Shown piece after piece: positions 475-62,389 of a DNA stretch of 64,000 bases. The position numbers and the translations under genes were made by a program. The first letter of the stretch is position 1; each line of letters opens with the position of its first letter. The DNA is from a virus, in the IMG/VR virus record IMGVR_UViG_3300020202_000074, positions 1,023-65,022 of that record; one strand, 5' to 3'. Below the pieces are notes generated by a model. It had not been told where the DNA came from. It saw only the letters and a program-made list of their open reading frames with translations, and ran no database searches.

Positions 475-609
475 GCCCAGAGCCTGAGTTAGTCCGACCC
501 CATCCCTAGCACGCATCCGATCCCGCGTTGTTGTGCTATGGTGGTGGGGAAGGACCAACCCAGTCCGCAGTCCCCAACCCAGGAGCCGATGGCTCCAGGA
601 GCCCCCACC

Positions 610-813
610 ATGCCCATCTTCCAAGTCCTCGTCCTAGTCCTCATCCTCCTCCTCTGGTTCATCGCCTGCCTCGCCTACGCTCAGACAGACTCCAATAGCA
701 CAGGGGAGACCATATTCGCAGTCATCTGCTTCGGCATCCTCGCAGGAGCCATCCTCTTTCTGTTATGCCTCGCTGGCACCTTCACCCACATCATCGGATG
801 GCCCACCCCATGA
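610..813 (+). CDS. small two-TM membrane protein
   Basis: SD CAGGAG, ATG 610; two hydrophobic stretches; ATGA coupling to next gene. Confidence 0.65.
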   Translation: MPIFQVLVLVLILLLWFIACLAYAQTDSNSTGETIFAVICFGILAGAILFLLCLAGTFTHIIGWPTP

Positions 814-914
814 CACGGGACCGAACCACTCGTATCCTCAACATCGTCGCGCTGGCCCTCGCTGCCTACGCCCTCCTCGCATCCCTCTTCGCCCTCTGGA
901 GACTCCACCAATGA
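810..914 (+). CDS. 34-aa single-TM protein (not in ORF track)
   Basis: MTRDRTTRILNIVALALAAYALLASLFALWRLHQ; ATGA overlaps at both ends. Confidence 0.6.
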   Translation: MTRDRTTRILNIVALALAAYALLASLFALWRLHQ

Positions 915-1189
915 ACACCATCCTCAGCACCTGGTCCGAAGGTTGCACCATCGTCACAATCCTCGTCGGAGGCATAGTCACCGTCGCAGGCATCATCGCC
1001 GGAGTCGCATTCCACCACAACAAGCGTGAGCACGACCGTGAAGACCTGAAGGCCCACCACGAAATGGAGGTCAAGGACCGCAACGACTACAAGGCCCTGA
1101 TACGTAACGCCAACCAAATCGACAAGGCTGACAAGTCTCTTGGCGGCCTGGACTCCCTCGCCGAAGCCCACCGTCGGTGGATGCCATGA
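911..1189 (+). CDS. single-TM protein with charged C-terminus
   Basis: hydrophobic IVTILVGGIVTVAGIIAGVAF; translational coupling. Confidence 0.65.
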   Translation: MNTILSTWSEGCTIVTILVGGIVTVAGIIAGVAFHHNKREHDREDLKAHHEMEVKDRNDYKALIRNANQIDKADKSLGGLDSLAEAHRRWMP

Positions 1190-1332
1190 TCTTGCTGGCC
1201 CTCGCGATGACGTGCTTCCTCGCCTTCCTTGGCGAACCAGCCCCCTGTGTCCTCACCATCCTCCCACTCCTCACCCTCACTCGCGCTAAAGGAGCCCCCC
1301 ATGATCGTGCCCAATGCACAACCTATCCGTGA
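1186..1332 (+). CDS. small hydrophobic protein (not in ORF track)
   Basis: MILLALAMTCFLAFLGEPAPCVLTILPLL..; ATGA coupling. Confidence 0.45.
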   Translation: MILLALAMTCFLAFLGEPAPCVLTILPLLTLTRAKGAPHDRAQCTTYP

Positions 1333-6791: not shown

Positions 6792-6895
6792 AGTCTCCAC
6801 TCTGCGCGAGCCCTCTTGGCCGAAAGGCCCTGGGGGTTTATTGATCGGTTAGCTGCACTTCCACACTTCCAAGCCAGGCACAGAGTAAGGAGACT
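6792..6895 (+). promoter_or_regulatory. candidate cis-regulatory RNA sequestering the SD of the gene at 6900
   Basis: AGTCTCC-ACTCTG (6792-6804) pairs with CAGAGT-aa-GGAGACT (6881-6895); internal GGCC-GAAA-GGCC hairpin. Confidence 0.5.
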
Positions 6896-6899
6896 CGTG

Positions 6900-7544
6900 A
6901 TGTCGATCATTCGACAGCACCGCACGGTTGGCACGTCGCTGTTTTACAGCGACGAGGCGTATTACGACAACAACGGGTTCAGTACTCAAGAGGCCTATTA
7001 CAGCGGAGTGGAGGACGACTACGACTTCTACACCCACCAGCTCGAAGGTGAGCTCTCGTACGAATCCATCGAAGTGGATCCCTCTCCAGTGGGGAATAAC
7101 TACGAGTTGAAGGCCTCCTTCGAGTACCGCGAGCCCCAACGCCTGCATGCGTTCCGTGGACACGTGGCGGACCGCATCGACAAGGACGGCCACTTCTGCG
7201 GCGAGATATGGGGTCCTATCCCCACCACCATTGATGTGCTGAGGAGGCACCGTCGCCAGCGACCCCGCATGGATTACGAGGCGTATCTGACGGCCCGCGC
7301 CGACGCCCTGTTGATCGAAGCGAAGGCCCCTCTCTTCATCACGACGCCCGACAGTCCGCCGAACATTTACGCGACGGAGGCCAAGCCCTCCACCTACCAT
7401 CCGGAACCTTGGCGAGCCTTGAAGGAGCAGATCCGCCTTCGCCTGGGCATGATCGACGCAACCAAACGACCATCGCCCATCCCCGAAGAGGACCTCACCT
7501 TCCAGGCCGCCCAGGCCCTCCGACACTCCCCAAGGAGCCGCTAA
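6900..7544 (+). CDS. hypothetical protein
   Basis: SD AAGGAG, ATG 6900. Confidence 0.65.
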   Translation: MSIIRQHRTVGTSLFYSDEAYYDNNGFSTQEAYYSGVEDDYDFYTHQLEGELSYESIEVDPSPVGNNYELKASFEYREPQRLHAFRGHVADRIDKDGHFCGEIWGPIPTTIDVLRRHRRQRPRMDYEAYLTARADALLIEAKAPLFITTPDSPPNIYATEAKPSTYHPEPWRALKEQIRLRLGMIDATKRPSPIPEEDLTFQAAQALRHSPRSR

Positions 7545-11193: not shown

Positions 11194-12006
11194 ATGCCCC
11201 GACAGACTGAAGAAGAAACGAACCTCCGCCAGAAGCGATTCCGTGACCTCGGCGAGAAGATGAGTCAGGCCTCCTGCGTCGTCATTGGCTGCGGCGCCAT
11301 CGGCCGCCAGGTGGCCATGCAGCTCGCCGTCATGGGCGTCGCCACCCTCGACCTCTACGACCCTGGCGACATCGAGGAAGTGAACCTCGGCACCCAGGGT
11401 TGGAGCCCCCTCGACGAGGGCAAGCCCAAGGCCCAAGTCCTCGCGGAAGAGATCGAGGATGTGAACCCCGACGTCATCGTCGGCACCGTCATTGGCACCT
11501 TCAAGGTGAGCCCCACCGCGCAGAACGTAGCGGATACGTACGTATTCATGTGCGTGGACTCGATGGAAGCTCGCACCGAAATCTTCCAGGCCATCAAGAA
11601 GGTGGCGGTGGAGGGAGCACCAGCCCACCTTTTCATCGACGCGCGGATGACGATGGAAGCCGCTCGGATTTTGGTGGTGGACAACCTCGCGGCCGACGAG
11701 TATTATCAATCCACCCTATTTGCCGACCGCGACGCGCTGGCTGACGGATGCACGACGAAATCGACCTTCTACTGCGCCAGCCTCGCGGCGTCGCTGATGG
11801 TGACGCAGTTCGCCAAGCACCTTCGGGGGATCGAGACCGACCGCGACATGACCATCGACCTTCGATCTATGGAACTGTTCCCCACCACCATCGACACGGC
11901 GCCCACAGCGGTGTCGCACACGTGCTCGGACAGCAGCCCGCCGGCGCTGGAGACCGCTGCGGTCGATGCCGTCCTGCGTAGCGTGACCGTCTGCCCGATG
12001 CCCTAG
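11194..12006 (+). CDS. ThiF/E1-like activating enzyme
   Basis: VIGCGAIGRQVA..DPGDIEEVNLGTQ..CVDSMEAR..IDARM..GCTTKST. Confidence 0.9.
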   Translation: MPRQTEEETNLRQKRFRDLGEKMSQASCVVIGCGAIGRQVAMQLAVMGVATLDLYDPGDIEEVNLGTQGWSPLDEGKPKAQVLAEEIEDVNPDVIVGTVIGTFKVSPTAQNVADTYVFMCVDSMEARTEIFQAIKKVAVEGAPAHLFIDARMTMEAARILVVDNLAADEYYQSTLFADRDALADGCTTKSTFYCASLAASLMVTQFAKHLRGIETDRDMTIDLRSMELFPTTIDTAPTAVSHTCSDSSPPALETAAVDAVLRSVTVCPMP

Positions 12007-14142: not shown

Positions 14143-14330
14143 CAAAATGTATTACGTTTGACGACTTGGAGGATCGAGACCGTGAGATCGCCGACCTCGC
14201 GCGGCGGCTGAGGACGGTAGAACTTGAATGTTCGGTTTGCCACCGCAAAATCGACTTATCAAAGGACCTCATCAAGTGCGCGCCCTGCGGAATGGGTACA
14301 TCAGTAGCTGCGAGGGAGCAGAACCCATGA
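14139..14330 (+). CDS. Zn-ribbon protein
   Basis: CSVC..CAPC; ATGA coupling. Confidence 0.55.
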   Translation: MTKCITFDDLEDRDREIADLARRLRTVELECSVCHRKIDLSKDLIKCAPCGMGTSVAAREQNP

Positions 14331-14509
14331 GCAAGATCAAGAAGTGGACATCAGCCGAACACCGCATCCTAATGTCTCTCATAGCGAGTGGCGTATCGGC
14401 TAGGGAGGCCAGCCGGCAGATGGAGCGATCGTGGGACTCCGTTCGACAGTTTGCATCTCGGCATGGCATCTCGTTGAAGCATCGCAAGGGCCGAAAGACC
14501 ACCACATAA
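14327..14509 (+). CDS. small helix-turn-helix DNA-binding protein
   Basis: WTSAEHRIL..GVSAREASRQMERSWDSVR. Confidence 0.7.
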   Translation: MSKIKKWTSAEHRILMSLIASGVSAREASRQMERSWDSVRQFASRHGISLKHRKGRKTTT

Positions 14510-14524: not shown

Positions 14525-15346
14525 ATGAACCTGCTTACCAGCACCGCATTGCCCGAGGGGTCGTTCCACTGGCCCCGCGCATACCAGGGGCCCTCGGTTC
14601 GGACTCTCTTCGACGAGCCCGCCGGGTGGGAGGGCACGTTGATCACTCCCTTCCACGCCTACGACCAGATCAAAGCGGCCCGCACCGTTTATCCCAAAGC
14701 GCAGCTCGGCGTCCTCGGCTGGCCACAGTTCAAGCCGGTTCACCAGGCCGACGACCTCCTCGCAGAGACGGCGGAGGCCTCCCGCATCAAGAGCGTCGTG
14801 AGCCTCGTTGACATGGTGTGCCCGGACTGCCGGTTGCCCGCCGCCGGCCACTTCGACACGTGGATGGGGCCCCAGATCGACACCGCCCGACGTCTTGCTA
14901 AGGGGAAGCCCGTCATCCCTATCGTCAGCCACCGGCGACGTTGCCCTGGCCCTCAGCACTACCAAGAGATCGGCCTCACAACGATCACCTTGCTGGTGCA
15001 GTTCCTGGAATCCATGCGAATCGACACCGTCATCCTCGTTACTGATGAAGTACCATGGATGATGGAACAATCGTTCATGGACCCCTCAGCAGGTGGCACC
15101 ATCGACGAACAGGCAGCCTTCCTCATTCGGCAGGCACAGAAGGCGTACCCTTGCCTCGTACACGTTGACGAGATCGAGTCGTACCACCTCAACGAGGTGA
15201 TGATGGCCGCCACCGCATTCCAGGGGGCAATCAACCTGTTGCCTCCCAGACGACAACGAAGAAATAGAGCGGTGACTGCTTCGGTTGATCCGCCTCCTCC
15301 TGCGTCGGCGGATCTCCCTCCGCACCCCACCACCGAAGCAATCTAA
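14525..15346 (+). CDS. hypothetical protein
   Basis: SD AGGGAG; 273 aa. Confidence 0.65.
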   Translation: MNLLTSTALPEGSFHWPRAYQGPSVRTLFDEPAGWEGTLITPFHAYDQIKAARTVYPKAQLGVLGWPQFKPVHQADDLLAETAEASRIKSVVSLVDMVCPDCRLPAAGHFDTWMGPQIDTARRLAKGKPVIPIVSHRRRCPGPQHYQEIGLTTITLLVQFLESMRIDTVILVTDEVPWMMEQSFMDPSAGGTIDEQAAFLIRQAQKAYPCLVHVDEIESYHLNEVMMAATAFQGAINLLPPRRQRRNRAVTASVDPPPPASADLPPHPTTEAI

Positions 15347-30969: not shown

Positions 30970-31044
30970 TTTCCCCACCACCAGTTCGTCGCTACCTAAC
31001 CGGGGCGGCGAACCCTTCAACACGTAGCCCGGAGTGACGCATGA

Positions 31045-31667: not shown

Positions 31668-32512
31668 ACATCACAGCGATTGAGGTGGTGGATCCCCGAG
31701 GGTGGGAGCTGAGGCCCGCGTCCCCGAAGCGGGAGTGGATGGACGCCGTCCCGCACGGCAACGCGTACCGGTGTCTGCCGCTGACGATGGCCAACCACAT
31801 GGGCTGGGTGATCACCTGTCCCACGGGGTTCGACGTCATCTGGTCCGGCCGCTGGGGATCGAGAGGGTCCCTGCTGTTCGAGTTCGAGGACGAGTCCTAC
31901 GCCCACCAGATCTCCGGGCACTTCGGCTCGGGCATCGTCACCTTCAACGTGCCGTGGATGTTCCAGACCGACGTCGAGGGCGTGGGCCTCTGGGTCACTG
32001 GGGCACCGAACTTCTACAAGACCAACATCCACCCGCTCACGGGGTTCGTGGAGACGTGGTGGCTGCCCTTCACCTTCACGATGAACTGGAAGATCGACGA
32101 GCCCCTCCGCCCGGTGTCCTTCCGCAAGGGAGACCCCATCTGCTACCTGACGCCCTACGACATCCGCGCGACGCAGGCCATGGTGGTGGGGAAAACAACC
32201 CTGGCGGAGGCCCCGCGTCAGCTGCGCGAGAAGTATCAGGAATGGACCCGGAGCCGCGACGGCTTCAACCGAGACCCCCGCAGCCGGGAGTTCGCGGGGC
32301 AGAAGCACTATCTCCGAGGCATCGACCACAGTGGAGGCCAAGCATCAACGCACCTCACTAGCCTCAAGCTGCCGTCATTCTACCCGGAGCCATCAGCCCT
32401 CGTCGAAGTCGAAGGAGGGAGCAATGGGGTTCCAGTTGCTGACCCCAACCAGGACACAGCCGGGCGGAGTGACGAGCCGGAAGCACCCAGCCGGCCGAAT
32501 CTGGCTGGCTAA
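31664..32512 (+). CDS. DUF6065-like protein
   Basis: RPASPKREWMD..AYRCLPLTMANHMGW signature. Confidence 0.8.
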   Translation: MNITAIEVVDPRGWELRPASPKREWMDAVPHGNAYRCLPLTMANHMGWVITCPTGFDVIWSGRWGSRGSLLFEFEDESYAHQISGHFGSGIVTFNVPWMFQTDVEGVGLWVTGAPNFYKTNIHPLTGFVETWWLPFTFTMNWKIDEPLRPVSFRKGDPICYLTPYDIRATQAMVVGKTTLAEAPRQLREKYQEWTRSRDGFNRDPRSREFAGQKHYLRGIDHSGGQASTHLTSLKLPSFYPEPSALVEVEGGSNGVPVADPNQDTAGRSDEPEAPSRPNLAG

Positions 32513-33074: not shown

Positions 33075-33765
33075 CCCCCGAGCCCCATTGGCTGGAGTCC
33101 TTGCGGGCCATGTACCCAGGCTTCTTGGGTCCCATCGTTCCGGGGTTGGCGTACCAGTAGGCCAGCGGAACTTTTGACGTGAGAGAGACCTGCGTAACCG
33201 GTAGAGGCCGGTGCGTATGGCCTCGGATTCCGAGCCGGTGCGCGTGCCCTCCGCAAGCGTTGGACATCTGGATACACTCCGTCCGATCGCTGCCAGCTTG
33301 ACTATCGAATCCGTGGTAGAAGATGACCTGACCAAGCTCATAGCACCCTTCCCGTCCCTTGACATAGGGGATTTGTTTCCAGCGTCTGAACTCAGAACCC
33401 CAATCGTAGTCGCGGTTCCAGTGGACCGCTTTCCTCAACGCCTTTGGCACCCGTCTCGGATCGGGTGCCTGGAGATTGTCATCGTGGTTGCCCAGAATCC
33501 ATACATAGTCGCACTCACCGCCGCATACATCGCGCAGGCTCAGGAGGTACTGGCCGGCTACGGCGTACTCCTCGGTTATATCCAGCGCGACATCCCTGGG
33601 ATGTACGCTGGCTGCCTCACTCTCGAAGAGGTCGCCCAGAAGCACGAAGACCTGGGGCTTGAACTCTCGAATCTGGGCCAGAAGATTCGCATGTGCGTCA
33701 ACGTCGTGGTAGGGACAATGCACACAGCTGATGGCAGCAAACCGAACGACACGCCCGTCCCTCAT
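32992..33765 (-). CDS. calcineurin-like metallophosphoesterase
   Basis: SCVH, LGDLFE, GNHDD, FYHG, GHTH; ATG 33765 coupled to cupin stop. Confidence 0.85.
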   Translation of the reverse strand: MRDGRVVRFAAISCVHCPYHDVDAHANLLAQIREFKPQVFVLLGDLFESEAASVHPRDVALDITEEYAVAGQYLLSLRDVCGGECDYVWILGNHDDNLQAPDPRRVPKALRKAVHWNRDYDWGSEFRRWKQIPYVKGREGCYELGQVIFYHGFDSQAGSDRTECIQMSNACGGHAHRLGIRGHTHRPLPVTQVSLTSKVPLAYWYANPGTMGPKKPGYMARKDSSQWGSGVILGESLVARPSRMRQGPQWSAELVRL

Positions 33766-34193
33766 TCCCCACCACCAATCGGTGGGGTTGTCGGTGACTG
33801 GGCACCTACACGCGCCGTCAGTGAGAACCAATCGGTAGCGGGTGGTGCAGCGCCTCCCACGTCCTCCCGTTCGATGTCGGAGGGGTCTAGCTCCGCCCAG
33901 TAGAACTCCAGGGCGACGGTGTCCTCGTGCGCCACGAACTTGTGGTACTCGCCTGGCTTCACCGTGCAGCTGTCCCCCGGCTGGAGCACTGTCACGTCAG
34001 TCAGCGAGTAGTCGTTCTTCCACACATGCACCGCCAGCGTGCCACTAATGACGTGGAACTTGTTGTACTTGTGAAGGTGCCGGTGCTTGGAGCAGTAGGC
34101 GTGCGCCTTCGCGTGGATGAGGTGGCACTCCACCCCCTGGTTGATGAACAACTCTCGCGTCTTCCCCCACACCTTTCCTGCAATATCCCCCAT
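33762..34193 (-). CDS. cupin (sugar-isomerase-like) protein
   Basis: KVWG..CSKHRHLHKYNKFHVISG..VKPGEYHKF. Confidence 0.85.
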   Translation of the reverse strand: MGDIAGKVWGKTRELFINQGVECHLIHAKAHAYCSKHRHLHKYNKFHVISGTLAVHVWKNDYSLTDVTVLQPGDSCTVKPGEYHKFVAHEDTVALEFYWAELDPSDIEREDVGGAAPPATDWFSLTARVGAQSPTTPPIGGGE

Positions 34194-38078: not shown

Positions 38079-38142
38079 GGAGGGGCCCCATCGGATAGAT
38101 GAGACCCCTCTGGTGGTGGGGAAATCAAAGAAGCTCGACGCC

Positions 38143-39360: not shown

Positions 39361-39363
39361 TGA

Positions 39364-39780: not shown

Positions 39781-40075
39781 AGCGTATTGCTCCTACGAAA
39801 CTCCACTCGGTGTCAGGATCGTAGTAGCTCCAAAGCGCGATGGAACCATCAGTGGGGAACAGCTTCCGCCGCAGCCACAGCTCCCGTCTCAGGGACTTGA
39901 GGTGAATGAGCTGGCCCTCGAAGTGGATAATCTCCGCATCGCTGAGGAGGTGGATCCTTTCCCCACCACCATCGAGGATGTCGGGTAGGGACTTGCCGTC
40001 GATGTCGACGGCGGCCGCTCCGTCTACGTTGTGGTGGTCCACCAGCTGCTTCGTCGCTTCTTTCCAATCCGCCAC
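39773..40075 (-). CDS. hypothetical protein
   Basis: SD GGAG, GTG start abutting upstream stop. Confidence 0.55.
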   Translation of the reverse strand: MADWKEATKQLVDHHNVDGAAAVDIDGKSLPDILDGGGERIHLLSDAEIIHFEGQLIHLKSLRRELWLRRKLFPTDGSIALWSYYDPDTEWSFVGAIRYA

Positions 40076-41683
40076 TTACTCCTCCTCGCCCTCTCCGGGC
40101 AAAGTGCCAACGGTGATCAGATCTCGTAGGTTGCCCTGCTGCTCCTCCATGTCGAGGAGCTGCTTCTCCACGTCCGCGATCTCCTTGGAGTCCTTCATCA
40201 GGTCCTGGAGGCCCAGCTCCACGAGCACCGTCGGGTGTTCCTTGAAGTACGCGGCCCTCTGCGCCTCGGTCATGCCCTCGGTCGCCTTCTTCAGATACTC
40301 CTTGGCGATGCTCAGGTTCTCGGCGTGCTTGGGGTTCAGCTGCGGGATCGCCGCATCCATCACGGTCTGTAGCCTGATGAGCCGGCCCATCCCCTGCCGG
40401 ATGGACTTCACGAACTCGTCCTTGCCCTCGGTCTTCTTCCGCACCTCAGCGCCCAGACTTCCATCTTCGTTCTGCGTTTGCACCGCTTCTTGATCGGGCC
40501 TTGCCCCAGCGGAGGCGTCCAGCGCCTTCTGCTCTGCCTCCTGCTCGGTGCCGTACCACAGGTGTTCGTCAGCCACGGAGGCCACGCCCTGAAGGATGCC
40601 CCGAAGCTGAGTAGGAGACATGCCATACTGCTCCATAGTCCGCTGCACACCCTCGGCGATCTCCTGCGATTCCTCCGGCGTGATCTTGCCATCCGCGTCG
40701 ACCCTCTGATGCAGTGCCATCAACGAAGCCATCGCCTCGCTAAGCCCCTCCGCCGGTGCTCCGGTGATCTGGGAGTAGTTCCTCACGACAGCGCTCATCA
40801 CCGCCATCGCGCTGTCATTGGGACTGGCCGCCTGTCCGAAGCTGGTCTCGATGGGGCCCATCACCGTGAGCGACGCCCGGTTCCCCAGATCGTTCATCTC
40901 ATCGGGCGCAAGGCCCTGGGCTTTGCCGCCTTCCTCACCCGCCGCACCCTGGAAGGTGTGCTGGAGCTTCTCCCAGAACCCCTTGGGCTTCCGGATATCC
41001 ATCAGGGTGTTCCAGTTGTCATCCCCCACCTGCGCTCCCGCCAGCTCCAGGATCGCCGCCTTGGCCGCGTGGTTCCCCGCCAGGGCGGAGTCTTGCTCCA
41101 CCTTTAGGGACTCGGCCTGCTGGGTGACGAACTCCGCGATCTTCTTGTTGATCTTGTCCACCTGCCCGGACCGCAGCGCCTCGTGCTGCATCTTCGCCAG
41201 AGCGGCAGCCTTCTCGACACGGTGCAGCTCCCGAGCGTTCTTCAACCGCTCCGCCTGGATCTCCTTGACCTTCTTGCCTCGGGCCTTGAGCTCAGCTTCC
41301 GCGTACGAGCGGTCCTTCTCGAAGAGGTCCCGCTGCTGTTTGGCCACCTTGTCCTGGTACTCGAACTCCTTCTGCTGCTGGGCATCCTGGTGGGCTCGCT
41401 GACGGTCCCAGCCCTCCTGCTGCATTCGCTCCTTGGCGAGCTCGGTCTGGTTCTGGCCCTGAGCCATGCGCTCTTGGGCCTCTCGGTCGGAGATCCAACG
41501 CTCGTGCTCGTTCTTGGACTCCTGCTTCTGGAAGTCCAGCTGCTTCACAGCGATCTGATTCTTGGTCTGCCGATCGTGCTTCTCGATCTCGATCTGGCTC
41601 TTTTGGTGAAGTAGACCGATGAGCTCCGGAGTTAGATCCGTGCCCGGCGACTTCAATCCCCCACCACCACTTGCGCTCGGCAT
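40076..41683 (-). CDS. coiled-coil internal virion/ejection protein
   Basis: Q/E/K/A-rich helices; TAATG coupling. Confidence 0.55.
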   Translation of the reverse strand: MPSASGGGGLKSPGTDLTPELIGLLHQKSQIEIEKHDRQTKNQIAVKQLDFQKQESKNEHERWISDREAQERMAQGQNQTELAKERMQQEGWDRQRAHQDAQQQKEFEYQDKVAKQQRDLFEKDRSYAEAELKARGKKVKEIQAERLKNARELHRVEKAAALAKMQHEALRSGQVDKINKKIAEFVTQQAESLKVEQDSALAGNHAAKAAILELAGAQVGDDNWNTLMDIRKPKGFWEKLQHTFQGAAGEEGGKAQGLAPDEMNDLGNRASLTVMGPIETSFGQAASPNDSAMAVMSAVVRNYSQITGAPAEGLSEAMASLMALHQRVDADGKITPEESQEIAEGVQRTMEQYGMSPTQLRGILQGVASVADEHLWYGTEQEAEQKALDASAGARPDQEAVQTQNEDGSLGAEVRKKTEGKDEFVKSIRQGMGRLIRLQTVMDAAIPQLNPKHAENLSIAKEYLKKATEGMTEAQRAAYFKEHPTVLVELGLQDLMKDSKEIADVEKQLLDMEEQQGNLRDLITVGTLPGEGEEE

Positions 41684-46836: not shown

Positions 46837-46868
46837 ATCCCCCCACTAAACCCCACTTCGATCCACCC

Positions 46869-47570: not shown

Positions 47571-49048
47571 GGCGGGTTTACCCCCTCTGGCAGCTTCTTC
47601 CCACCTGCCTTCACGGTGTCATACCAACCGAAGGTATCCAGGGCAGCGGGGTCGTTGAAGCGATCCGCTTCCGCGACACAGGCATCGTATGGCTTGTGGT
47701 CGAAGGCCTCCAGCCCACTATTTGGATTGCAGTTGAAGACCTTCATCCCCTGCGCCTCCATCAACGGCCGGAGAGCCTTGAACCGGATGTTGAGGTCCCG
47801 ATAGGTGTTGTTGTTCCCCCGAATGGCGCCAGCGCACCGCTCTTGCGGAAATGCGTACTTCTTCTCCTCGGACATCTTGAAGTCGCACCCGACCAGGTTG
47901 ACGGTGCGGAACCCCAGGTAGAAGAGCAGCCGCATGGCCGCCAGCATCACGGAGCGGGAACCGCCGCAGCCCAGAGAGTCGACCACCTTCTTGTGGTTCC
48001 CCCAGTTCACGGTATCCTCGTGGAGGTACTCGTTGACTTTGAAGTGCTCGTTGCGCTTGTAGAACAGGAGGTTCGGCATCTCACCGACGGTCTTGCCGGA
48101 CCAGCGCCACTTGCCCCCGTGCTTGGTGCCCAACCGCTTATTGATGAGTCCATACGGCACCAGCTTCAAGATGCCAGGGTCCTTCCAGCCCGCATCCAGG
48201 AATGTGCACGGGTCATCCACCGAGGTCCAGATCGTCGGACGCACCAGGCTCCAGGCGTTGTTGACCGCCATGGTCACTACGCCCCGGCGCTGGATCTTCG
48301 AGAGGTCGAGCTCGTTGGACGAAGGCCCGCTGAGCACCAGGAACGCCGTAGCACCCTTCCAGTGATCCTCCATGCAGAAGGAGTGGCCCTGCTTATTGTA
48401 TAGGAGCAGGTTGGATTGCTTCTTGGACGTCGGAGGCGGGCGCCTCGACTCCCTAGCGTCGTTCTGGTCCCGATAACCATCCTTCACCAAGGGGTGGGTT
48501 GCATCGAGAGGTCCACCAGACACCGCAGGAGGCGAAGGGTCGTTCCCCACCACCATGTCGGTTGCGGGGGTCGTGATGTCCCACTCGCTGAGGGGCACGG
48601 TGTCGCTGACGATGGCGGTCTTCCAGGGCTTGAGGTGCTTGCACCACACATGGCTGGCGAAGCTCTGCACCTCGCGGATCAGGTCCGGTCCGTCGGCGCC
48701 GTGCACGACGATCACCTTCGCCCACGGCTTCAGCCGCCGTAGGGCCTCCACCCGCTGCGCTCCGCTCCCGTGGTCGATGAGCGCCAGCCCCCACTCCTTG
48801 TCGTAGGGCACCTGCGAGTAGTCCGACACGATCGTGAATGTGTGGTGGGGACGAACCCCGATGTCTTTGAGCGCGTCCGCGTACGGGCCAGGGTGCTCGC
48901 ACGTGTGCAGGAGCCGGCCCATCTTCCCGCACAGGTCGCTAAGGATTGGAGTGCTGTAGAAGCCGCCGCCGATTTCCAGCACGCTTCCGTAGGTGTTGCA
49001 CAGCGCCGTCACGAGGAACGGCAAGTGAGTGTGAAATCCGTCCGCCAT
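47567..49048 (-). CDS. fusion: methyltransferase-like N-domain plus MAF/DUF115-like glycosyltransferase C-domain
   Basis: VLEIGGGFYST..LIDH; AFLVLSGPS..AVNNAW..LGFRTVNLVGCDF. Confidence 0.7.
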   Translation of the reverse strand: MADGFHTHLPFLVTALCNTYGSVLEIGGGFYSTPILSDLCGKMGRLLHTCEHPGPYADALKDIGVRPHHTFTIVSDYSQVPYDKEWGLALIDHGSGAQRVEALRRLKPWAKVIVVHGADGPDLIREVQSFASHVWCKHLKPWKTAIVSDTVPLSEWDITTPATDMVVGNDPSPPAVSGGPLDATHPLVKDGYRDQNDARESRRPPPTSKKQSNLLLYNKQGHSFCMEDHWKGATAFLVLSGPSSNELDLSKIQRRGVVTMAVNNAWSLVRPTIWTSVDDPCTFLDAGWKDPGILKLVPYGLINKRLGTKHGGKWRWSGKTVGEMPNLLFYKRNEHFKVNEYLHEDTVNWGNHKKVVDSLGCGGSRSVMLAAMRLLFYLGFRTVNLVGCDFKMSEEKKYAFPQERCAGAIRGNNNTYRDLNIRFKALRPLMEAQGMKVFNCNPNSGLEAFDHKPYDACVAEADRFNDPAALDTFGWYDTVKAGGKKLPEGVNPP

Positions 49049-49064
49049 CCCGCCCCCAACCTCC

Positions 49065-50270
49065 TTATGCGTTGCCGTTGTCCACGGTCTCCACGACACA
49101 GTTCGTGGCCGTAATGGTATTCCCCGCATCCGCCACACTGTACGTAGCGGTGATGTCGATTCCTTTGGTCGTCGTGGTGTCGATGGTCACTGCCGCCGTG
49201 GTCACCATCCCGTACTTCGTGATGGCTCCGGAGCCACCCATGAACTCCGCCGTGCCTTGGCCGTGCACGGTGCCACTGGCTCCCCGCGACCGGCAGGTGA
49301 TCAGGGACTCCACGGTCCAGCCGGTGTTCGTGAGCCCCGTCACCAGGTTCTGGGCTGTAGTCTGGTGGATGATCGTCCCGCCCAGCTTCACCTTGATGTT
49401 CAGCGTCCCGGCGCCAGCCCCCAAGGTTGACTGGTACCCGCAGATCTTGACCCGGATGCTCTTGCCAGCCGTGAAGAACCCGATGGGCAATGTCATGTTG
49501 CCGACACCGCCTCCTACCAACGACGTCTCCACCGTGGTGTTGGCGACCGTCTTGTCTGCCGTGGCGATGAAGTTCGCGCAGTCACAGCCAAGCCCGTAAC
49601 CCGAAGCATTCGACGAGGTGTCGTCGAACTCGTTGGCGTTGGGTGAGAAGGGGTTGAAGCAGTCCTGGATGCTTCCGTTGTTTGAAGTGCAGCTGTTCGC
49701 CCCCGCCCCCGTCGGACCCGTAGGTCCCGTGGAGCCAGTGCTCCCGGTGCTACCCGCGCTCCCCGTGGGCCCCGTAGGTCCCGTTGGTCCGGTGCACGAT
49801 TCGGGACACTGCCCAGCAGGCCCAGCAGGACCCGGCGGGCCGGGAGGTCCCGGAGGACCAGAAGGACCGCTAGGTCCAGTGGGGCCCGTAGGGCCGCTCG
49901 GCCCCGAAGGACCAGAGGGCCCCGTAGGTCCCGTTGGACCCGTGAGCCCCGGAGGGCCAGGCGGTCCACCGCCACCACCACCGGGGGGTCCCGGAGGACC
50001 CGGAGGCGCGATACCCGGAGGTAGGTGGATGACCACCGTCTCGCCGGCCGGCCGAGCGTTCTGGTACTGGAAGGACAGGGTTCGGATGTCGGGGCCGGTG
50101 CCCAGGTAGAAGCCGGGGCCCTCCCGCGCTTTGCGTTGCCCGAACACCTCGGCCAGGGTCTTCGACTTGGCGGCACCAAACCGGCCCCGGAAGGTACGCG
50201 AGTACCAGTCATTCAGGGTGGCCTGATTGTTGAGAATGTCCTGTGGATTCTGGACCGTTGAGAAAGGCAT
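49065..50270 (-). CDS. collagen-like (Gly-Pro-X) fibre protein
   Basis: long GPT/GPS/GPP runs; beta-rich C-terminal domain. Confidence 0.85.
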
Positions 50271-51890: not shown

Positions 51891-52160
51891 TTACTTGCGT
51901 TCAGGCAGCGAAATCGAATCCGAACCCGTGCCGCTGGTCATCACTCGGTCAGGCAGCGAGCTGGAGAGGTCGCCCGAGAAGGACGCCGACTCCGAGCCGA
52001 AGCCACCGGTGTTGGACGTCGCGCCCGAAGACGCGGAGCCCGACCAGCTGAGGCTGTTCTCGATGACCGCCCGCATTTGGTGTTCGAGGCGAATGAGACG
52101 CCGCCCGTACTCGGTGAGCAGCGTAGTGATTTGTTCTTGCGTAAGTACAGGACGACCCAT
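51891..52160 (-). CDS. small protein with Ser-rich tail
   Basis: SD AAAGGA; SWSGSASSGATS..SESASFSGDLSSS. Confidence 0.6.
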   Translation of the reverse strand: MGRPVLTQEQITTLLTEYGRRLIRLEHQMRAVIENSLSWSGSASSGATSNTGGFGSESASFSGDLSSSLPDRVMTSGTGSDSISLPERK

Positions 52161-52182
52161 GTTCGTTCCTTTCTTCGTACTC

Positions 52183-52218
52183 GGTCCCCAGCCCCCCGGT
52201 GAAGGGGGGCTAGGAACC
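52183..52218 (-). terminator. strong hairpin downstream of capsid gene
   Basis: GGTTCCTAGCCCCCC/GGGGGGCTGGGGACC stem; no U tract, so may be a stabiliser rather than a terminator. Confidence 0.45.
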
Positions 52219-52245
52219 GACGATTTCAGTTAGTGCCGCTAGGGT

Positions 52246-53945: not shown

Positions 53946-54905
53946 TCAGACCTTGCCCTCGCCGCCTTCACCGTCTTCCAGAGCCAACCGGCTCAGGACA
54001 TCGGTATTCCACTCACGAACCTTCGTGGTGGTCGTTCCCATGTCGTCCTTGCCCTTTTCGTAGGTAGGCGTGGGAATCGGCTTCGAGCGCAACAACACGT
54101 CTTGACCCGTAACTGTTTCCGGCGCCCTCTTGAGTTTGTTGGGGTCGCCGATTACCGACAGGTATCCCTTGTACACTGCTTCCGCAGCGCCTTGGGACTC
54201 TTCCGCCAACCAGTCCTCCTCCACCCGCCGTCCAGTCGTGGACGAACGGATCTTGAGGCGGTTGATCGTCTCCCTCTGAATCTCCTCGGCGATCCGGTTC
54301 TTGGCTTCCGCCAACCCCTCCTCGCCACGGAGATCTTTGAGAGCCTTGAACAATAGGCTCATGTTAGGGTGTGAGTCAAGCACCTCTGCCGCCGACGCAT
54401 GCAACGCCTTCTTGAGGCTCTGGACCCGATGTCGATCCATCTCCTCACGCAGTTGCTTCAACTCCGCCGCCGTCGCGGCATCCGGCGCCGTTTTCGTGGT
54501 CTCCACCTTCTTCTCTCCTTCATTGTCAGCCGGCTTGCTCGTGCCTGGGTCCAGGCTCTTGACGTACTCCTCGATATCCTCGGGGGCGTACCCCGCCTTA
54601 GAGAGAACGTGTCGCAAGGACTCCGACCGTTTGGCCGCATCCACCGAATCCCCCTGAAGCAGGGTCTCCGTGGCGGTCTTGTACTGGTCGTACTCGGACG
54701 ACTTGGCCTCCGCCGCTTCTTTAGCCGCAATGATGTCCTTGATGGTCAGCTCCTTGCCGCCCACCTTCACCTTGGCGTCCAAGTCCAGAACCCCCGTCGC
54801 TCCCCCCTTGTTGGTTTCCCCACCACCATTTCCGGTGGGTTGCTCCCCTGCGGCGGGGTCGGTGTCGGCCATCAGGCGTCGCGTGCTATATCGAATAAAA
54901 GTCAT
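53946..54905 (-). CDS. scaffolding protein (probable)
   Basis: charged helical protein directly before capsid gene. Confidence 0.6.
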   Translation of the reverse strand: MTFIRYSTRRLMADTDPAAGEQPTGNGGGETNKGGATGVLDLDAKVKVGGKELTIKDIIAAKEAAEAKSSEYDQYKTATETLLQGDSVDAAKRSESLRHVLSKAGYAPEDIEEYVKSLDPGTSKPADNEGEKKVETTKTAPDAATAAELKQLREEMDRHRVQSLKKALHASAAEVLDSHPNMSLLFKALKDLRGEEGLAEAKNRIAEEIQRETINRLKIRSSTTGRRVEEDWLAEESQGAAEAVYKGYLSVIGDPNKLKRAPETVTGQDVLLRSKPIPTPTYEKGKDDMGTTTTKVREWNTDVLSRLALEDGEGGEGKV

Positions 54906-57334: not shown

Positions 57335-57643
57335 TTAGTCAGCATTTCGCCCTACGTCCGTAGCCTCAGCCGCCGACGGCTTCGTCGTCCGGCACCTCGC
57401 CCTCGCCGCCGCTCCACGGGGTTCGTACCCTGGCATATAGGTTCGCAGGAGCACCTCCTGAAGCTTCTTGTCGACCTCCGGGTCGCTCGGCGAACCCGGC
57501 GCCTTCACCCCTTGGTCCCCAGAGATCTTCACGGCGTCGCGGTCGATGCCCAGGATCGCTGCGTAGTACACCTTCGCCATCGCGTGGTAGAGGGACACCG
57601 GGAGGGTAACGGTCTGGACGGGGTGGTTAGACTCGGGAATCAT
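57335..57643 (-). CDS. hypothetical protein
   Basis: ORF between terL and portal. Confidence 0.55.
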   Translation of the reverse strand: MIPESNHPVQTVTLPVSLYHAMAKVYYAAILGIDRDAVKISGDQGVKAPGSPSDPEVDKKLQEVLLRTYMPGYEPRGAAARARCRTTKPSAAEATDVGRNAD

Positions 57644-59591
57644 GGGTTTCGCTCGGTCGGCTGCCTGCATTCAGGATCTCAAGGATGTCGGCGGCCGGCA
57701 CCTTCATCCAGTCCACCGCGTGGGCGTTGAAGTGCCCGTGCTCGTCGGTGTAGTTCCCCGCCTTCAACTGCTCCAAGGGCGTCTTTCGCTCCTCTGGCGC
57801 GTGCCCGCTGACGCGAAGCCGCCCACGGAGGATAAGTGTAGACATCGCGACGGTGTCGATGACGTCATCGTTCTTCAGGCCGCCGTCCAACACCTCGGGG
57901 TTGAACCCCTCGATCTGGTCGAAGAGCATCGACCACGGCATGCGATTCCGCATATGGAGGGGGAACTTGATGCGGCCATACTCGAATCGGGGCTGCAACG
58001 TGGCGATCTTGGCGGTCTTCTCCGCCACGCCAGGGTTGAACTTCTTGATCGACGGCATGAAGCTCACGTTGTAGATGTCCATCTGCCTCTGACGAACGAT
58101 GCTGTCGAGCGTGTTGTAAAGCACGATACCCTGTTTGATGGTCTCTACGTGCACCGTGGGACACCGCCAGCGGGACGCCATCCGAAGAGTCGCCTTGATC
58201 AGCTCTTGTTCGTGGCACTGCTTGGCCCAGAGATCGAGGACGAAGAGGTCCTGATCCTTGGTGATCGCCATAAGGGTGGCGACCTTGTAGTCCGAGTCCT
58301 TGCCGGTGGTCCACGAGTTGTCGGTGGTGATGAAAAGCCGAGACTCCGCGAGGAAGTCCGCCATTCGCAGGCCTCGGGGTACGCCCTTGCTGTCCACCCA
58401 CTGGATGCGGGCATTCGACAGCCGAGGGGACTCCTCTAGGGCGTCATCGGCGTCGGTGATCTGGTAGCCGTGCTTGTCGTCGGAGAGGTTGCCGAAGAAC
58501 TGGTCTTCGGCGGTGCCCGGCATCGCCATGTACTCGCCCAAGAAGACGGAGCTGCCGACCTTCTCTCGGATCTCCTCCAGGGTCTTGCACTCGGGTCGAG
58601 CCTTCAACCGTCGCTCTTCGTCGTTGGCCGGCCACATCTCCGGCCAGCAGCTGATCAACTCGCCGTTGGCGCCCTCGTAGGCGGCCTTCACCACGTATCG
58701 AGACCATCCGTCGAAGCGGGGCTCCACCGCGCGGCGCTGGCCGTGGGCGTCGACGTACGTCTGGAGGGCGTGCCAAGCGAAGTGTCTCCGCGACACGAAG
58801 GTGGCCAGCCAATCACAGCCGCAGCCGGGGCGCATGACCATCGGCAGGACGACGTTGAAGAGGAACTGCCGCATATTGTCGCGGACCTGGGCCATCGACG
58901 TAGAGGCCTTGGCGTCGTACTCAGGGTCATCGAGACGGAATCGTCGAGGACGACTGCCACGCAGCTTGCCTTCGGCGGAGACGCACCGGATATAGGACCC
59001 GTTGCGGAGCATCAGATAGTTCGTGGAGTACGTGGACTCGCCGCGCTTGGGGACGATCTCGCCACCGGGGAACTCCGGGTCCCAGTCGTCCCTGATTCGG
59101 GGATTGTCGCGGAACTGCATCTTCAGCGTGAGACCCATGTTCGTCGCGTTCTCGTTGGTCGACGTCGCGTACGTGATGGAGTTCACGGGCCGGCTGAGCA
59201 GCAGCAGCGCGTTGTCCTTCTTCACGAGCGTGGATTTCGCGGAACCACGGGGGGCGATGGCGATGTTGGCGTCGGAGGTGGCCCACTGCCGAACGATGTC
59301 CCAGTGAAGGTCCGGCGTCCGCATGGGCTCGTCGTCGTAGAACATGGGGTCGAACTCGATCTCCGGGTTCGGCCACAGATACCACAAGTCGAAGAACCGA
59401 AGGCTGGCCACGCGGGCCTCCGCCTTCATCTCGATGCTGTTGTAGGGGTACGCGCTGATGGGTAGCATCCACTGGCGGCAGGCGTTCACACGAGCCTGAC
59501 GTCGTCCGTCAGTCGTGAGCGTCTCGTAGTCCGCAACCAGGGGATACAGGGGATTCCCCTCCGCCGGCGTCAATACCCTCTTTACGTTCAA
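57627..59591 (-). CDS. terL: terminase large subunit
   Basis: APRGSAKST Walker A, LRGSRP..LDDPE Walker B, nuclease DD..D (DDVIDT). Confidence 0.9.
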   Translation of the reverse strand: MNVKRVLTPAEGNPLYPLVADYETLTTDGRRQARVNACRQWMLPISAYPYNSIEMKAEARVASLRFFDLWYLWPNPEIEFDPMFYDDEPMRTPDLHWDIVRQWATSDANIAIAPRGSAKSTLVKKDNALLLLSRPVNSITYATSTNENATNMGLTLKMQFRDNPRIRDDWDPEFPGGEIVPKRGESTYSTNYLMLRNGSYIRCVSAEGKLRGSRPRRFRLDDPEYDAKASTSMAQVRDNMRQFLFNVVLPMVMRPGCGCDWLATFVSRRHFAWHALQTYVDAHGQRRAVEPRFDGWSRYVVKAAYEGANGELISCWPEMWPANDEERRLKARPECKTLEEIREKVGSSVFLGEYMAMPGTAEDQFFGNLSDDKHGYQITDADDALEESPRLSNARIQWVDSKGVPRGLRMADFLAESRLFITTDNSWTTGKDSDYKVATLMAITKDQDLFVLDLWAKQCHEQELIKATLRMASRWRCPTVHVETIKQGIVLYNTLDSIVRQRQMDIYNVSFMPSIKKFNPGVAEKTAKIATLQPRFEYGRIKFPLHMRNRMPWSMLFDQIEGFNPEVLDGGLKNDDVIDTVAMSTLILRGRLRVSGHAPEERKTPLEQLKAGNYTDEHGHFNAHAVDWMKVPAADILEILNAGSRPSETHDSRV

Positions 59592-59620: not shown

Positions 59621-60238
59621 TTATGTGCTCTCTGGTGATGTGGTGACTCCGCCGGCCTTCATCGCGAGGAGGCTCACCGCCGCACAGGCGATCAGTGATC
59701 GGAGGATCTCCGCTGGGTGGATGAAGCTGCACTCGGCGATCTCCTGGGCCATCGCCAGGTACCAAGGACTGATCATCGGCATGAACCGCTTGGGCCCCTC
59801 CTCGGGGTCTTCCTCGGTGAGAACGGGAGTCGACACCGGAGGACACAGCTCCTGGTAGAGGGCCAGGCCCAGCTGATGATGGGTGCCCCACCACTCGCCG
59901 GGGAGACGGATCCCGAGCTCTCGGAGGTGGCCGCCGCCGATCTGGGCGATCTCCGACTCCGACAGGGATCGGAGGACGGTGTGCAGCTGGTCACTGAGGC
60001 CCTGCCGGCTCACCGACCGCCGGATCAGCTTGCTCTCCGGAAAGTCCAAAGGTGTCTGCGGATCGGGCGCCGGTGGGGTTGTTGTGGGCGCTGAGAGCTC
60101 GCACGATTTGCTCGGCGGGGTCAATGTCAGCGGAGCGAGGACGGGGGCGGTGGTATTCCGGACGGCCGTAGGCGCCGCGATCTTCGGCTCCTTCGCCGGC
60201 TTGGGCATCGGCGGCTGCTTGGTTTTGGACTTTGGCAT
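59621..60238 (-). CDS. hypothetical protein with P/T/K-rich N-terminus
   Basis: overlaps upstream gene by 248 nt. Confidence 0.5.
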   Translation of the reverse strand: MPKSKTKQPPMPKPAKEPKIAAPTAVRNTTAPVLAPLTLTPPSKSCELSAPTTTPPAPDPQTPLDFPESKLIRRSVSRQGLSDQLHTVLRSLSESEIAQIGGGHLRELGIRLPGEWWGTHHQLGLALYQELCPPVSTPVLTEEDPEEGPKRFMPMISPWYLAMAQEIAECSFIHPAEILRSLIACAAVSLLAMKAGGVTTSPEST

Positions 60239-60638
60239 TCGTTAGGTTCTCACGGGCGAGGGCGGCCAGCACCGGGCTGGTGGCCATCGTGACCGACTGC
60301 TCGATCGAACCATCCTCCTTTCGAGTGGCAGTGAAGTATACGGACGTTGCTTGCTTGATATCCCGCAGCAGAGCGCGGAACTGAGTCTGGGCCTTGAGCC
60401 GGACCTTGATCTCGTGATGCTCCATCGCCTCCTTTAGGAGGGCGAGCTCGTCGGCCAGCGTGATGCCGGACGCCTCGATCGCCGCGAGGATGGCGTCGGG
60501 GCTGTAGAACCGCTCGATGAGCGGGTGATCCGCTGGCTGGTTGCGTCGAATGACCGCCTTATTCTCCACACCAGATGTGGTGGTGGGGATAAGTTCCGAG
60601 GGCAAGCCAGTGTCCGTGGGCTCCACGAAGGATGTCAT
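59991..60638 (-). CDS. hypothetical protein (terminase small subunit candidate)
   Basis: helical, upstream of terL; positional only. Confidence 0.4.
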   Translation of the reverse strand: MTSFVEPTDTGLPSELIPTTTSGVENKAVIRRNQPADHPLIERFYSPDAILAAIEASGITLADELALLKEAMEHHEIKVRLKAQTQFRALLRDIKQATSVYFTATRKEDGSIEQSVTMATSPVLAALARENLTNAKVQNQAAADAQAGEGAEDRGAYGRPEYHRPRPRSADIDPAEQIVRALSAHNNPTGARSADTFGLSGEQADPAVGEPAGPQ

Positions 60639-61594
60639 TTCGGCAACCTCCGCACAATTCCACCGAGCGCCTCTAGGGCCTTGGGTACCGCCGACCTCGA
60701 CTTGATGTAGAACGGAGAGCTCTCCAGAGCACCTGCGGCGCCTACGAGAGTCTGTCCGCGAATCGCGGAGGGTCGCTCCTTGGCGATTTTCTCCAGGATG
60801 GCTACCTGTGTCTGCTTGGGTAGGAGTGAGAAGGCCTTGGGGTCCTGGAGTTCAGGAGGCAGCGCTTTGCGATGGATGCGATGCTCGGTCTGGGTGTACT
60901 CAGTAGGCTCGGGCTTGCCGGCGTAGGACTCGTGGAGCCGGAATCGCTGCTGTCGGGAGTTGGCATCCGCGAGAGCTTCCTCTTCCGGGCTGGGATACAG
61001 TGGTTCTTCGACCTGGCGGGCTTGGACGTTCTTCAGGTTGACGATGTTCCCGAGCACGGGGCCCTTGGTGGTGCGGACCGGCTTGCGGAGCTTCTGGGAG
61101 AACGGCCCCTCATTGAGGTAGATGCCCCAGTTCTTGTACCCCTGCGGTTTGGGGTTCTGCTTCACGTACTCGTAGGGCTTCTCGTCGCTGAGGCCCATCG
61201 AATACTCACGAGCCTTAGCGGCTTGGTCTCGCCGGAACCCTTCGAGGTAGGCGCCCCACTGGCCGGACTTCTGGAGCTTCTTGCGCTCCGCCTTCGGGAT
61301 GCTGGGAAACGAGCCCAGGAGATTGCTAGGGGATTGGGCCTTGAGGAGCTCGCGGTTGCCCAGGCCCTTGCGGACAAACTGGGACATCTTGTCGTGCTTC
61401 AGGCTGTTGAGGATCGTGACGCCTTCGGTGTCGCCCGCCTTGACGGCGGCCTCCAGGGCTCGGTTGAAGGCCTTCTCGATGTCCTTGGCGGTGCCCTCCT
61501 TGGCGGCCCAGAACGACAGCGGACGACCCGCCACGACTCGCTTGCGAGCTTGGTACCACCGTGCGATCTTATCGAGCGGGAACTCCTCCGCCAC
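60635..61594 (-). CDS. basic hypothetical protein
   Basis: Lys-rich 319 aa; ATGA coupling. Confidence 0.6.
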   Translation of the reverse strand: MAEEFPLDKIARWYQARKRVVAGRPLSFWAAKEGTAKDIEKAFNRALEAAVKAGDTEGVTILNSLKHDKMSQFVRKGLGNRELLKAQSPSNLLGSFPSIPKAERKKLQKSGQWGAYLEGFRRDQAAKAREYSMGLSDEKPYEYVKQNPKPQGYKNWGIYLNEGPFSQKLRKPVRTTKGPVLGNIVNLKNVQARQVEEPLYPSPEEEALADANSRQQRFRLHESYAGKPEPTEYTQTEHRIHRKALPPELQDPKAFSLLPKQTQVAILEKIAKERPSAIRGQTLVGAAGALESSPFYIKSRSAVPKALEALGGIVRRLPK

Positions 61595-61627
61595 CTACTG
61601 ACCCCCTCATCCGGAAAACGAATCGGC

Positions 61628-62389
61628 TCAATACTTTATGCGGGCCGCCGGCGGGAGGTCGTTGGCCACTTTCTTGGGCCCGGAGACCTTGGCTCGCTCC
61701 TCCGGGGTGAACGTGGACATCCCGCCGTAGAAGCCCATGCCCAGGATCTGGTCGAGCTTGTCCTTACGGTCAAAGGCCGATCCCGCCTTGTCGAGGTCTC
61801 CCTTGTCCGTCCAGTAGCGGAACGAGGCCGCTTCCATGTTCCTCTGCGCGAGCATCGGGTCCCCGGTGGGCGTGGCGGGAGTCGACCGCGCGGCGGTGGG
61901 GCCGATCTGAGAGGCCCCAGTCGATGAGGTGCCGGTGCCGAAGCTGGGACCCATGGGGCCGCCGGCGTTGTTCTGTCGTGCGCGGTTGGCGTTGACGCCC
62001 GTGTTGTAGGACCCGCTGTTCACGTTGACGCGGGAGCCAGTGTCTGGGCCCTTGGACCGGTAGCTGTTGAAAGCCCCACGCGCGGGCTGACTTTCCCCAC
62101 CACCATATTGGTGGTCCGCTGAGCGGGGTCTGCGGGTAGGGCCCCCGATGCCGAGGCGCTGTAGCTCCTGGGTGACGAGGTCGGCGACCATCTTGGCGAT
62201 CTCGGGGCTCTGGCCCATCGGCTGCGGTTGCATCGATGCGGCGGGGCCGATGGCGCCGAACTTCGCGGACTGCGGGGTGCCCGGCATCGGAGAGGTCTGC
62301 GGACCCAGGGACCCAATGGATCCGACGGGCTGGCTGCCAGCGCCGCCGGGATTTGGGAGGCCTCGCATAGGAAAGTTAGGAATCGGCAT
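61628..62389 (-). CDS. Gly/Pro-rich low-complexity protein
   Basis: first gene of - strand block. Confidence 0.55.
   Translation of the reverse strand: MPIPNFPMRGLPNPGGAGSQPVGSIGSLGPQTSPMPGTPQSAKFGAIGPAASMQPQPMGQSPEIAKMVADLVTQELQRLGIGGPTRRPRSADHQYGGGESQPARGAFNSYRSKGPDTGSRVNVNSGSYNTGVNANRARQNNAGGPMGPSFGTGTSSTGASQIGPTAARSTPATPTGDPMLAQRNMEAASFRYWTDKGDLDKAGSAFDRKDKLDQILGMGFYGGMSTFTPEERAKVSGPKKVANDLPPAARIKY

Follow-up and report, generated by a model that had tools for sequence, protein, structure and literature searches.

The window analysed here, 64,000 bases in length, comprises bases 1023-65022 of the 65,474-base IMG/VR virus record IMGVR_UViG_3300020202_000074 and is nearly the whole 65.5-kb genome of an uncultured soil phage; the record originates from soil metagenomes and was closed through an end overlap of about 130 bases. 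Dispersed through its genes and spacers is an asymmetric 13-base word, WTCCCCACCACCA. The repetition of this word, pointed out in a sequence-only reading of the window, is real and much broader than the window itself, being a trait of a whole phage family: as judged by comparison of the genomes, the 13-mer is this phage's dialect of a family-wide cis-acting DNA signal. Copy coordinates below are in window numbering.

Genome organization

The plus-strand arm of the genome carries early and replication genes: a Ubl/E1/JAB cassette and genes for a uracil-DNA glycosylase (UDG)-like protein, PolA, an ERCC4-type nuclease (24047-24637), a RecB-like PD-(D/E)XK exonuclease (27073-28332), a Sak4-like protein (28961-29896) and a DUF6065 protein. 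The convergent minus-strand arm is structural, with TerL (57627-59591), the portal, a capsid candidate of 536 amino acids (aa) and two large proteins of 1245 and 1146 aa; a gene for a D5-like helicase (62411-63823) diverges from it. Glycosyltransferase-like, methyltransferase-like and helix-turn-helix (HTH) proteins are also encoded, one of the HTH genes lying at 14228-14509, and tRNA-like elements are present. TerL is 24-28% identical to N4-like terminases and has no cultured relative. Neither integrase nor repressor was found by Pfam or PHROGs, and the same searches detected no primase (Toprim, AEP, DnaG) and no RNA polymerase in this genome or in its marine relative G007; the PHROG matches named 'DNA primase' span only the D5_N and helicase parts of the 470-aa helicase.

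The word is over-represented and selected as DNA

Exact matching finds 15 copies of WTCCCCACCACCA, ten on the plus strand and five on the minus strand. None appears in 100 dinucleotide shuffles of the sequence, Markov models of orders 1 to 5 predict 0.007-0.09 copies, and in the whole 65,474-base genome the word heads the list of over-represented k-mers by a wide margin. Its CCCCACCACC core is matched 19 times in the window, against 0.36 expected from shuffles, the matches beyond the canonical copies lying at 2073, 15325, 37794 and 41659. A logo of the sites shows that the conserved unit is 14 bases long, tTCCCCACCACCAt. The word is all-or-nothing, tolerance of two mismatches adding just two further places.

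Eleven of the 15 copies are inside genes, where protein sequence provides a natural control. When synonymous codons are shuffled with the proteins kept intact, only about 0.9 of the 11 coding copies survive (totals, which include the four intergenic copies left untouched by the procedure, have a mean of 4.9 and a maximum of 8). Sense copies are translated as (I/F)PTT, antisense copies as MVVG or GGGE. The coding copies are thus confined to three of the six possible readings, the cheapest ones, and the costly frames SPPP and PHH do not occur among them; WWWG would be read at a single site, 33765, and there only on the assumption that an uncertain gene begins at its first ATG. Such a restriction is the pattern expected of DNA-level selection that pays the lowest protein price. 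The sequence-only reading had listed the 15 copies, the four additional cores and the reading frames, and had argued for selection at the nucleic-acid level; copies and cores are all where it placed them, re-translation returns the same frames, the excess is significant against both Markov and codon-preserving nulls, and the codon shuffle, together with the positional conservation between relatives described below, bears out the argument for selection. The copies are as follows (ORF, open reading frame; nt, nucleotides).

539..551, minus strand: canonical copy (TTCCCCACCACCA), overlapping the start codon of ORF 538-813 and reading MVVGK
7218..7230, plus strand: canonical copy (ATCCCCACCACCA), in ORF 6816-7544, sense, IPTTI
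11878..11890, plus strand: canonical copy, in the ThiF/E1-like gene 11194-12006, sense, FPTTI
18213..18225, plus strand: canonical copy, intergenic, 28 nt upstream of ORF 18254-18499
18817..18829, minus strand: canonical copy, in the UDG-like gene 18741-19463, antisense, MVVGM
22567..22579, plus strand: canonical copy, in the family A DNA polymerase gene 21328-23907, sense, IPTTI
30971..30983, plus strand: canonical copy, intergenic, between the tRNA-like element 30760-30836 and ORF 31045-31551
32181..32193, minus strand: canonical copy, in the DUF6065 gene 31664-32512, antisense, MVVGK
33765..33777, plus strand: canonical copy, at the 5' end of the metallophosphoesterase gene 32992-33831 (minus) or the 3' end of ORF 33762-34193 (minus), antisense either way
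38111..38123, minus strand: canonical copy, intergenic, between ORF 37803-38078 (plus) and ORF 38143-38715 (minus)
39959..39971, plus strand: canonical copy, in ORF 39773-40075 (minus), antisense, DGGGE
48543..48555, plus strand: canonical copy, in ORF 47567-49138 (minus), antisense, MVVGN
54816..54828, plus strand: canonical copy, in ORF 53946-54905 (minus), the gene after the portal, antisense, NGGGE
60578..60590, minus strand: canonical copy, between ORFs 59621-60238 (minus) and 60635-61594 (minus), or within the alternative ORF 59991-60638 (minus), IPTTT
62093..62105, plus strand: canonical copy, in ORF 61628-62389 (minus), antisense, YGGGE, 306 nt from the start of the D5-like helicase gene
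41657..41670, plus strand: near copy (TCCCCCACCACCAC), with one mismatch within the 13-mer

The non-canonical cores at 2073 and 15325, in two early genes, have identical flanks (TCCGCACCCCACCACCGAA, 2067-2088 and 15319-15340) and are a separate small direct repeat rather than canonical copies.

Each phage lineage has its own dialect

TerL searches point to a large family, with no fewer than 365 protein clusters and 273 IMG/VR records; its members come from soil, from the sea (Tara samples among them) and from other waters, and none has been cultured. The closest TerL match to that of the window is 54% identical; relatives lie at 43-54%, range in GC content from 39 to 68% and come from both soil and marine samples. 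Their common core consists of the D5-like helicase, PolA, the UDG-like protein, the ERCC4-type nuclease, the RecB-like exonuclease, the Sak4-like protein, a 177-aa protein (30211-30744 in the window) and the structural genes. The family appears strictly virulent.

An exact scan of IMG/VR with the 14-mer returned only chance single matches, and the window's exact word is not enriched in the relatives. Each relative has its own word instead. All 12 complete or near-complete relatives carry an over-represented word of their own, at 12 to 41 copies per genome, most of the partial ones carry one too, and these dialects share the core W-C(4-7)-R/T-C, CCCCCACT being one example. Logos reveal no flanking signal beside any of the words. 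When a CCCC-type 8-mer at P<1e-6 is taken as the common criterion, such a word is present in 38 of 57 family loci and in 1 of 58 unrelated viral loci. The dialects include the following.

G001: CACCCCCTCCAGGT, 25-30 copies
G002: CACCCCTCCCATC, 21-45 copies
G004: CTCCCCCACTGC, about 5-13 copies
G008: TTCCCCGCT, 18 copies
G007 and G009: AACCCCCACT(C), 40-41 copies
G011-G013: ACCCCCACTG, 27-35 copies
G014: TCCCCCCCAC, 36 copies
L143: CTCCCCGCTCC, 6-7 copies in 22 kb
L144: TTCCCCACT, 8-10 copies in 22 kb

The word is thus very probably a recognition signal that acts at the DNA level and is specific to this phage family.

Conservation and distribution of the sites

The window has no close relatives of its own, so conservation was assessed by comparing other family members with one another. 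In pairs with 73-91% nucleotide identity the exact word is kept at 155 of 220 aligned sites, where the background conservation of equally long words predicts 56; the pairs compared are not independent, and all agree in direction. A map anchored on TerL shows the same positions recurring across clades that use different dialects. One example is the window copy at 54816, antisense and at +4763 relative to the start of TerL: many relatives have a site in that orientation at the corresponding place (+4606 to +4769). Purifying selection is thereby shown to hold the signal in place, in genes and spacers alike.

Behind the capsid-candidate gene the relatives L143-L146 keep a copy immediately downstream; the window has at this place (51900-52245, minus strand) a plain GC-rich hairpin terminator with no copy of the word.

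Orientation is independent of the direction of transcription in both arms of the genome, each having sense and antisense copies, which argues against promoters, terminators, stoperators and RNA elements. The form of the word does show a strand preference: its C-rich form is about twice as common on one strand (170 vs 282 over all loci; 10:5 in the window, 19:9 to 20:9 in G001, 9:24 to 10:23 in G002 and 15:26 in G007). In all 11 genomes with clear skew, the strand richer in the C-rich form is the C-rich strand genome-wide; the twelfth, G010, is neutral.

Along each strand the sites are evenly laid out. The ten plus-strand copies in the window's genome are 2.8-10.5 kb apart with a coefficient of variation of 0.33, a regularity attained by none of 3000 random placements, and in most genomes the sites of each strand are laid out more regularly than random placement would give (Fisher P ~1e-10 over six clades). 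The strands also alternate more often than chance would have it, and where two sites lie less than 500 bases apart a C-rich site followed by a G-rich one is the preferred order (39 vs 12). The segments enclosed by such pairs are ordinary coding DNA. We also considered an N4-like hairpin promoter and rejected it: a downstream complement of the word is weakly enriched in two genomes and absent in a third, and the logos have no flanking signal.

A possible site of strand opening or DNA synthesis

A signal that is distributed per strand, evenly, without regard to transcription, that co-evolves with phage lineage and that is held by strong purifying selection fits a site at which a strand is cut or started. 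Our analysis therefore leads us to propose tentatively, as the likeliest of the readings considered, that the word may be a strand-specific nick or DNA-synthesis start signal for a phage-encoded enzyme. A factor found only in this family would read the signal as DNA, each strand separately. That enzyme would either nick one strand at the site, in the manner of T5, phiKMV-like and tf-like phages, or begin DNA synthesis there, so that a replisome with no recognisable primase would be provided, along both strands and at regular distances, with 3' ends or primers. Drift of the enzyme's specificity jointly with that of its sites would generate the dialects. Provided that the G-rich strand is the one newly made or extended, close pairs in their preferred order, C-rich then G-rich, would direct synthesis outwards.

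Several observations weigh against this proposal. A signal for primase should be found along each strand, as the even per-strand spacing has it, and should be accompanied by a cognate primase, of which none was detected. Nor did Pfam or PHROGs reveal an HNH, GIY-YIG or HUH nickase in the window's genome or in G007. The phages in which nicks have been documented have all their sites on one strand; here both strands carry them, at about 2:1. Close pairs are absent from the window's genome, and the idea that pairs elsewhere are origin-like was rejected, the enclosed segments not being AT-rich; what looks like the true origin is a separate cluster of iterons near the helicase region (see below). 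The strand bias, since it tracks GC skew, may reflect a single replication polarity or merely mutational supply. Lastly, nicks or primers are predicted from sequence, the public data being assembled contigs. Contigs assembled from four marine short-read runs and aligned to G007 gave one single-nucleotide polymorphism and no ends.

The proposal has a wider form, which we consider rather unlikely: that the words constitute an undescribed genome punctuation, in which even, strand-specific C-run words give 3' ends to a primase-less replisome, and that the crAss-like gut phages have arrived at the same solution. Such a replisome would comprise the D5-like helicase, PolA, the RecB-like exonuclease, the Sak4-like protein and the ERCC4-type nuclease, its 3' ends being made through sequence-specific nicks or by a primer-making activity. 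This globally distributed soil and marine family and the crAss-like phages of the human gut would share the solution either because their readers descend from a common one or because they converged on it.

Alternative readers

A different kind of one-strand reading would be a Chi-like self tag: a processive helicase-nuclease, either the host's RecBCD or AddAB or the phage's RecB-like exonuclease, would recognise the G-rich strand (ATGGTGGTGGGGAA, CAGTGGGGG) on coming from its 3' side, whereupon degradation would stop, recombination would start and phage DNA would be spared at any end. All known Chi sites are likewise G-rich on one strand, and GGTGGTGG, contained in the window phage's dialect, differs by one base from the Chi of E. 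coli. Copies on both strands, evenly spaced on each, would minimise DNA loss from any break; the majority orientation follows genome-wide GC skew as Chi orientation follows the direction of replication; and the family possesses a RecB-family PD-(D/E)XK exonuclease, a Sak4-like annealing protein and an ERCC4-type nuclease. However, known Chi sites are 5-8 bases long and belong to the host, whereas here the core is constant in sea and soil over 39-68% GC and the flanks vary by phage lineage. The word is absent from unrelated phages, and the bacterial contigs of the sole metagenome-assembled genome (MAG) in which a relative was found show no excess of it; a helicase-nuclease of RecBCD or AddAB type is not encoded, and the preferred order of pairs is left unexplained. 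We consider a Chi-like role unlikely, though it is one of the two main rivals to the proposal. The other, less likely still, is a phage protein that binds the word as duplex, whether for architecture (compaction, partition, anchoring) or for global regulation, a class that takes in stoperator-like sites and the dispersed operators of P1 C1. A sharp, asymmetric word of 8-14 bp without flanking signal would suit such a protein, as would the irrelevance of orientation relative to genes; HTH proteins are encoded, and lineage-specific dialects are familiar from the repressors and stoperators of Cluster A mycobacteriophages. But 11 of the 15 copies are intragenic, there is no tie to promoters or to transcription polarity, the family looks virulent, without integrase, repressor or a prophage in 185,579 species genomes, and a duplex reader would not be expected to produce strand alternation and separate even spacing on each strand. 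The sequence-only reading had suggested binding sites for a phage or host protein; what stands of this is a recognition signal private to the phage, which might serve in protection from RecBCD/AddAB or in packaging, as also suggested there; repression of the stoperator type finds no support, for the reasons just given.

Three further readings have less to recommend them. Modification enzymes do recognise short asymmetric words, and glycosyltransferase-like and methyltransferase-like proteins are encoded in the window's genome, so that a glycosyl or methyl mark placed on the C or G run might label the phage DNA; yet the genes in question lie outside the family core, and modification targets need neither over-representation nor positional conservation nor even spacing, which makes this improbable. 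A word borrowed from the host (a DNA uptake sequence, an FtsK-orienting polar sequence (KOPS) or an architecture-imparting sequence) and read by host machinery would account for dialects on a common core, on both strands and in genes and spacers, statistics that resemble those of uptake sequences. Its core would then have to persist across hosts that must differ widely, marine and soil, over 39-68% GC. A TerL profile search of 185,579 species genomes found no prophage relative and matched two MAG contigs. In one 3.6-Mb MAG, G006, labelled Myxococcales, 29 of the 36 copies of the word are on three phage-like contigs (C7, C18 and C72), and the other seven, in the remaining ~3.5 Mb, are at about the level of the reversed-word control. 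Because no prophage relative exists in this set and most of the MAG copies sit on phage-like contigs, a host-genome word is unlikely; because unrelated phages do not have the word and the core is constant over this GC range, so is a universal host factor as reader. We therefore regard a borrowed word as very improbable, and the earlier analogy with uptake sequences or KOPS gives way to a word that tracks the phage family. The last, also raised by that earlier reading, is an RNA-level element or mimic of the tRNA 3' end, tied to the genome's tRNA-like RNAs: the window phage's dialect does end in CCACCA, but relatives' dialects do not, and copies are found in both orientations relative to transcription. 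As far as comparative data allow, this reading is refuted, and we give it scarcely any credence.

The dialect TCCCCCCAC groups contigs C7, C18 and C72 of G006 as one phage, and in so doing flags viral contamination of the MAG.

Comparison with documented systems

The nearest documented parallel to the word is the set of nick-associated words of certain phages. Those of tf, LUZ24 and Rembedalsseter-like phages (TACTRTGMC / WACTRTGAC) number 9-14 per genome, with 0.7 expected, are intragenic and conserved in position, and vary by lineage; others are found in T5 and in phiKMV-like phages (CGACxxxxxCCTACTCCGG). They have few degenerate copies and are a whole-family trait, the lineage-specific variants suggesting co-evolution of enzyme and site, and their function is unexplained even where nicks are proven (PMC3517423, PMC11780129). 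The word described here resembles them in being short, exact, asymmetric and over-represented (15 copies vs 0 expected), in having few degenerate forms, and in the conservation among relatives both of its positions and of lineage-specific variants. It differs in that their words are all on one strand and clustered in one half of the genome, while ours cover each of the two strands evenly; in its unrelated, C-rich sequence; in its nicks, which here are a prediction; and in the phages themselves, an unrelated lineage whose TerL is no more than distantly N4-like.

A look-alike word occurs in a cultured Bacteroides phage, crAss002. Within bases 1-50000 of its genome (MN917146, locus L227), (T)TCCCCCGTA(A/G)AGG is present nine times, with both strands represented (P ~1e-13), and has in common with our words the build T-T-C run-purine-pyrimidine. 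The words of crAss-like phages are longer, at 14-25 bases, and some have mini-hairpins; in crAss002 some copies form a CCCC/GGGG mini-hairpin. No sequence homology between crAss002 and the window's family was detected for TerL, portal, capsid or exonuclease, and a shared reader is not supported by this comparison; the likeness may be due to convergence, to a shared small reader gene or to chance.

Each of the other systems matches in part. Chi, too, has a G-rich strand, is over-represented, and combines directional reading with an orientation that follows a genome-wide polarity, but it is a 5-8-base host word common to all the host's DNA, where ours is of 8-14 bases, belongs to a single phage family and keeps its core across very different hosts. 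The DNA uptake sequences and uptake signal sequences of Neisseria and Pasteurellaceae likewise have dialects on a common core, a density of about 1 per 1-4 kb, copies on both strands in genes and spacers, and selection at the DNA level. They mark bacterial chromosomes for the competence machinery, however; here it is a virulent phage genome that is marked, the family is known as virus records only, and the word, to judge from its distribution in G006, does not mark a chromosome. Stoperators of Cluster A mycobacteriophages, also asymmetric and 13-14 bp long, occur in dozens of copies and have a specificity that co-varies with lineage; unlike ours, they are oriented with transcription, mostly intergenic, and found in temperate phages with a repressor. 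The word is thus not explained by any known family with which we compared it. Our searches of the literature, which were limited, found no description of these words or of over-representation of primase sites.

Implications

That every complete or near-complete genome spends coding capacity on 12 to 41 copies implies that the reader is central to the handling of DNA by these phages, a family that is large and widespread in ocean and soil. To our knowledge, the motif-linked nicks of T5-like, phiKMV-like and tf-like phages have been without an explanation of their function since the 1960s, and a two-stranded, evenly spaced system with many natural dialects provides comparative leverage on this question; crAss002, which can be grown, offers a cultured system with a look-alike word. 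An enzyme with tunable one-strand specificity over 8-14 bases could, if the proposal is true, serve as a nicking or priming tool. The dialects have a more immediate use as binning signatures, as their picking out three contigs of one phage in a MAG demonstrates.

Other features of the genome

A non-coding region at 65210-65474 and 1-200 of the record (G000), just left of window base 1, holds about 12 iterons, (A)GTGACGGC(T) / CGTCAC(T), in both orientations. It follows small genes downstream of the helicase gene, its sequence differs from that of the dispersed word, and it resembles an origin, a pac site or an early control region. The G-run (GGCGGGGGTGGGGGATGGGGAA) at which the contig was closed lies inside it. 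The relative G010 has a second word, ACTGTGCTAC, in six copies (1-80, 52150-52208), several of them at contig ends and iteron-like; its ACTGTG core resembles that of the tf nick word TACTGTGMC.

A virion RNA polymerase was considered for the 1146-aa and 1245-aa proteins and rejected, neither having a sequence match to any solved structure. Their Atlas neighbours are 'polyvalent protein' and tail- or muzzle-like entries and nothing else, and the 1146-aa protein resembles 'large polyvalent protein' clusters. The region that includes them (34209-49138, minus strand) is split into genes of 523, 233, 1245, 410, 535 and 1146 aa, among others; in relatives a single giant protein, 2316-3324 aa long, follows the capsid and tail genes (L144, 20712 onward; L145, 20398 onward).

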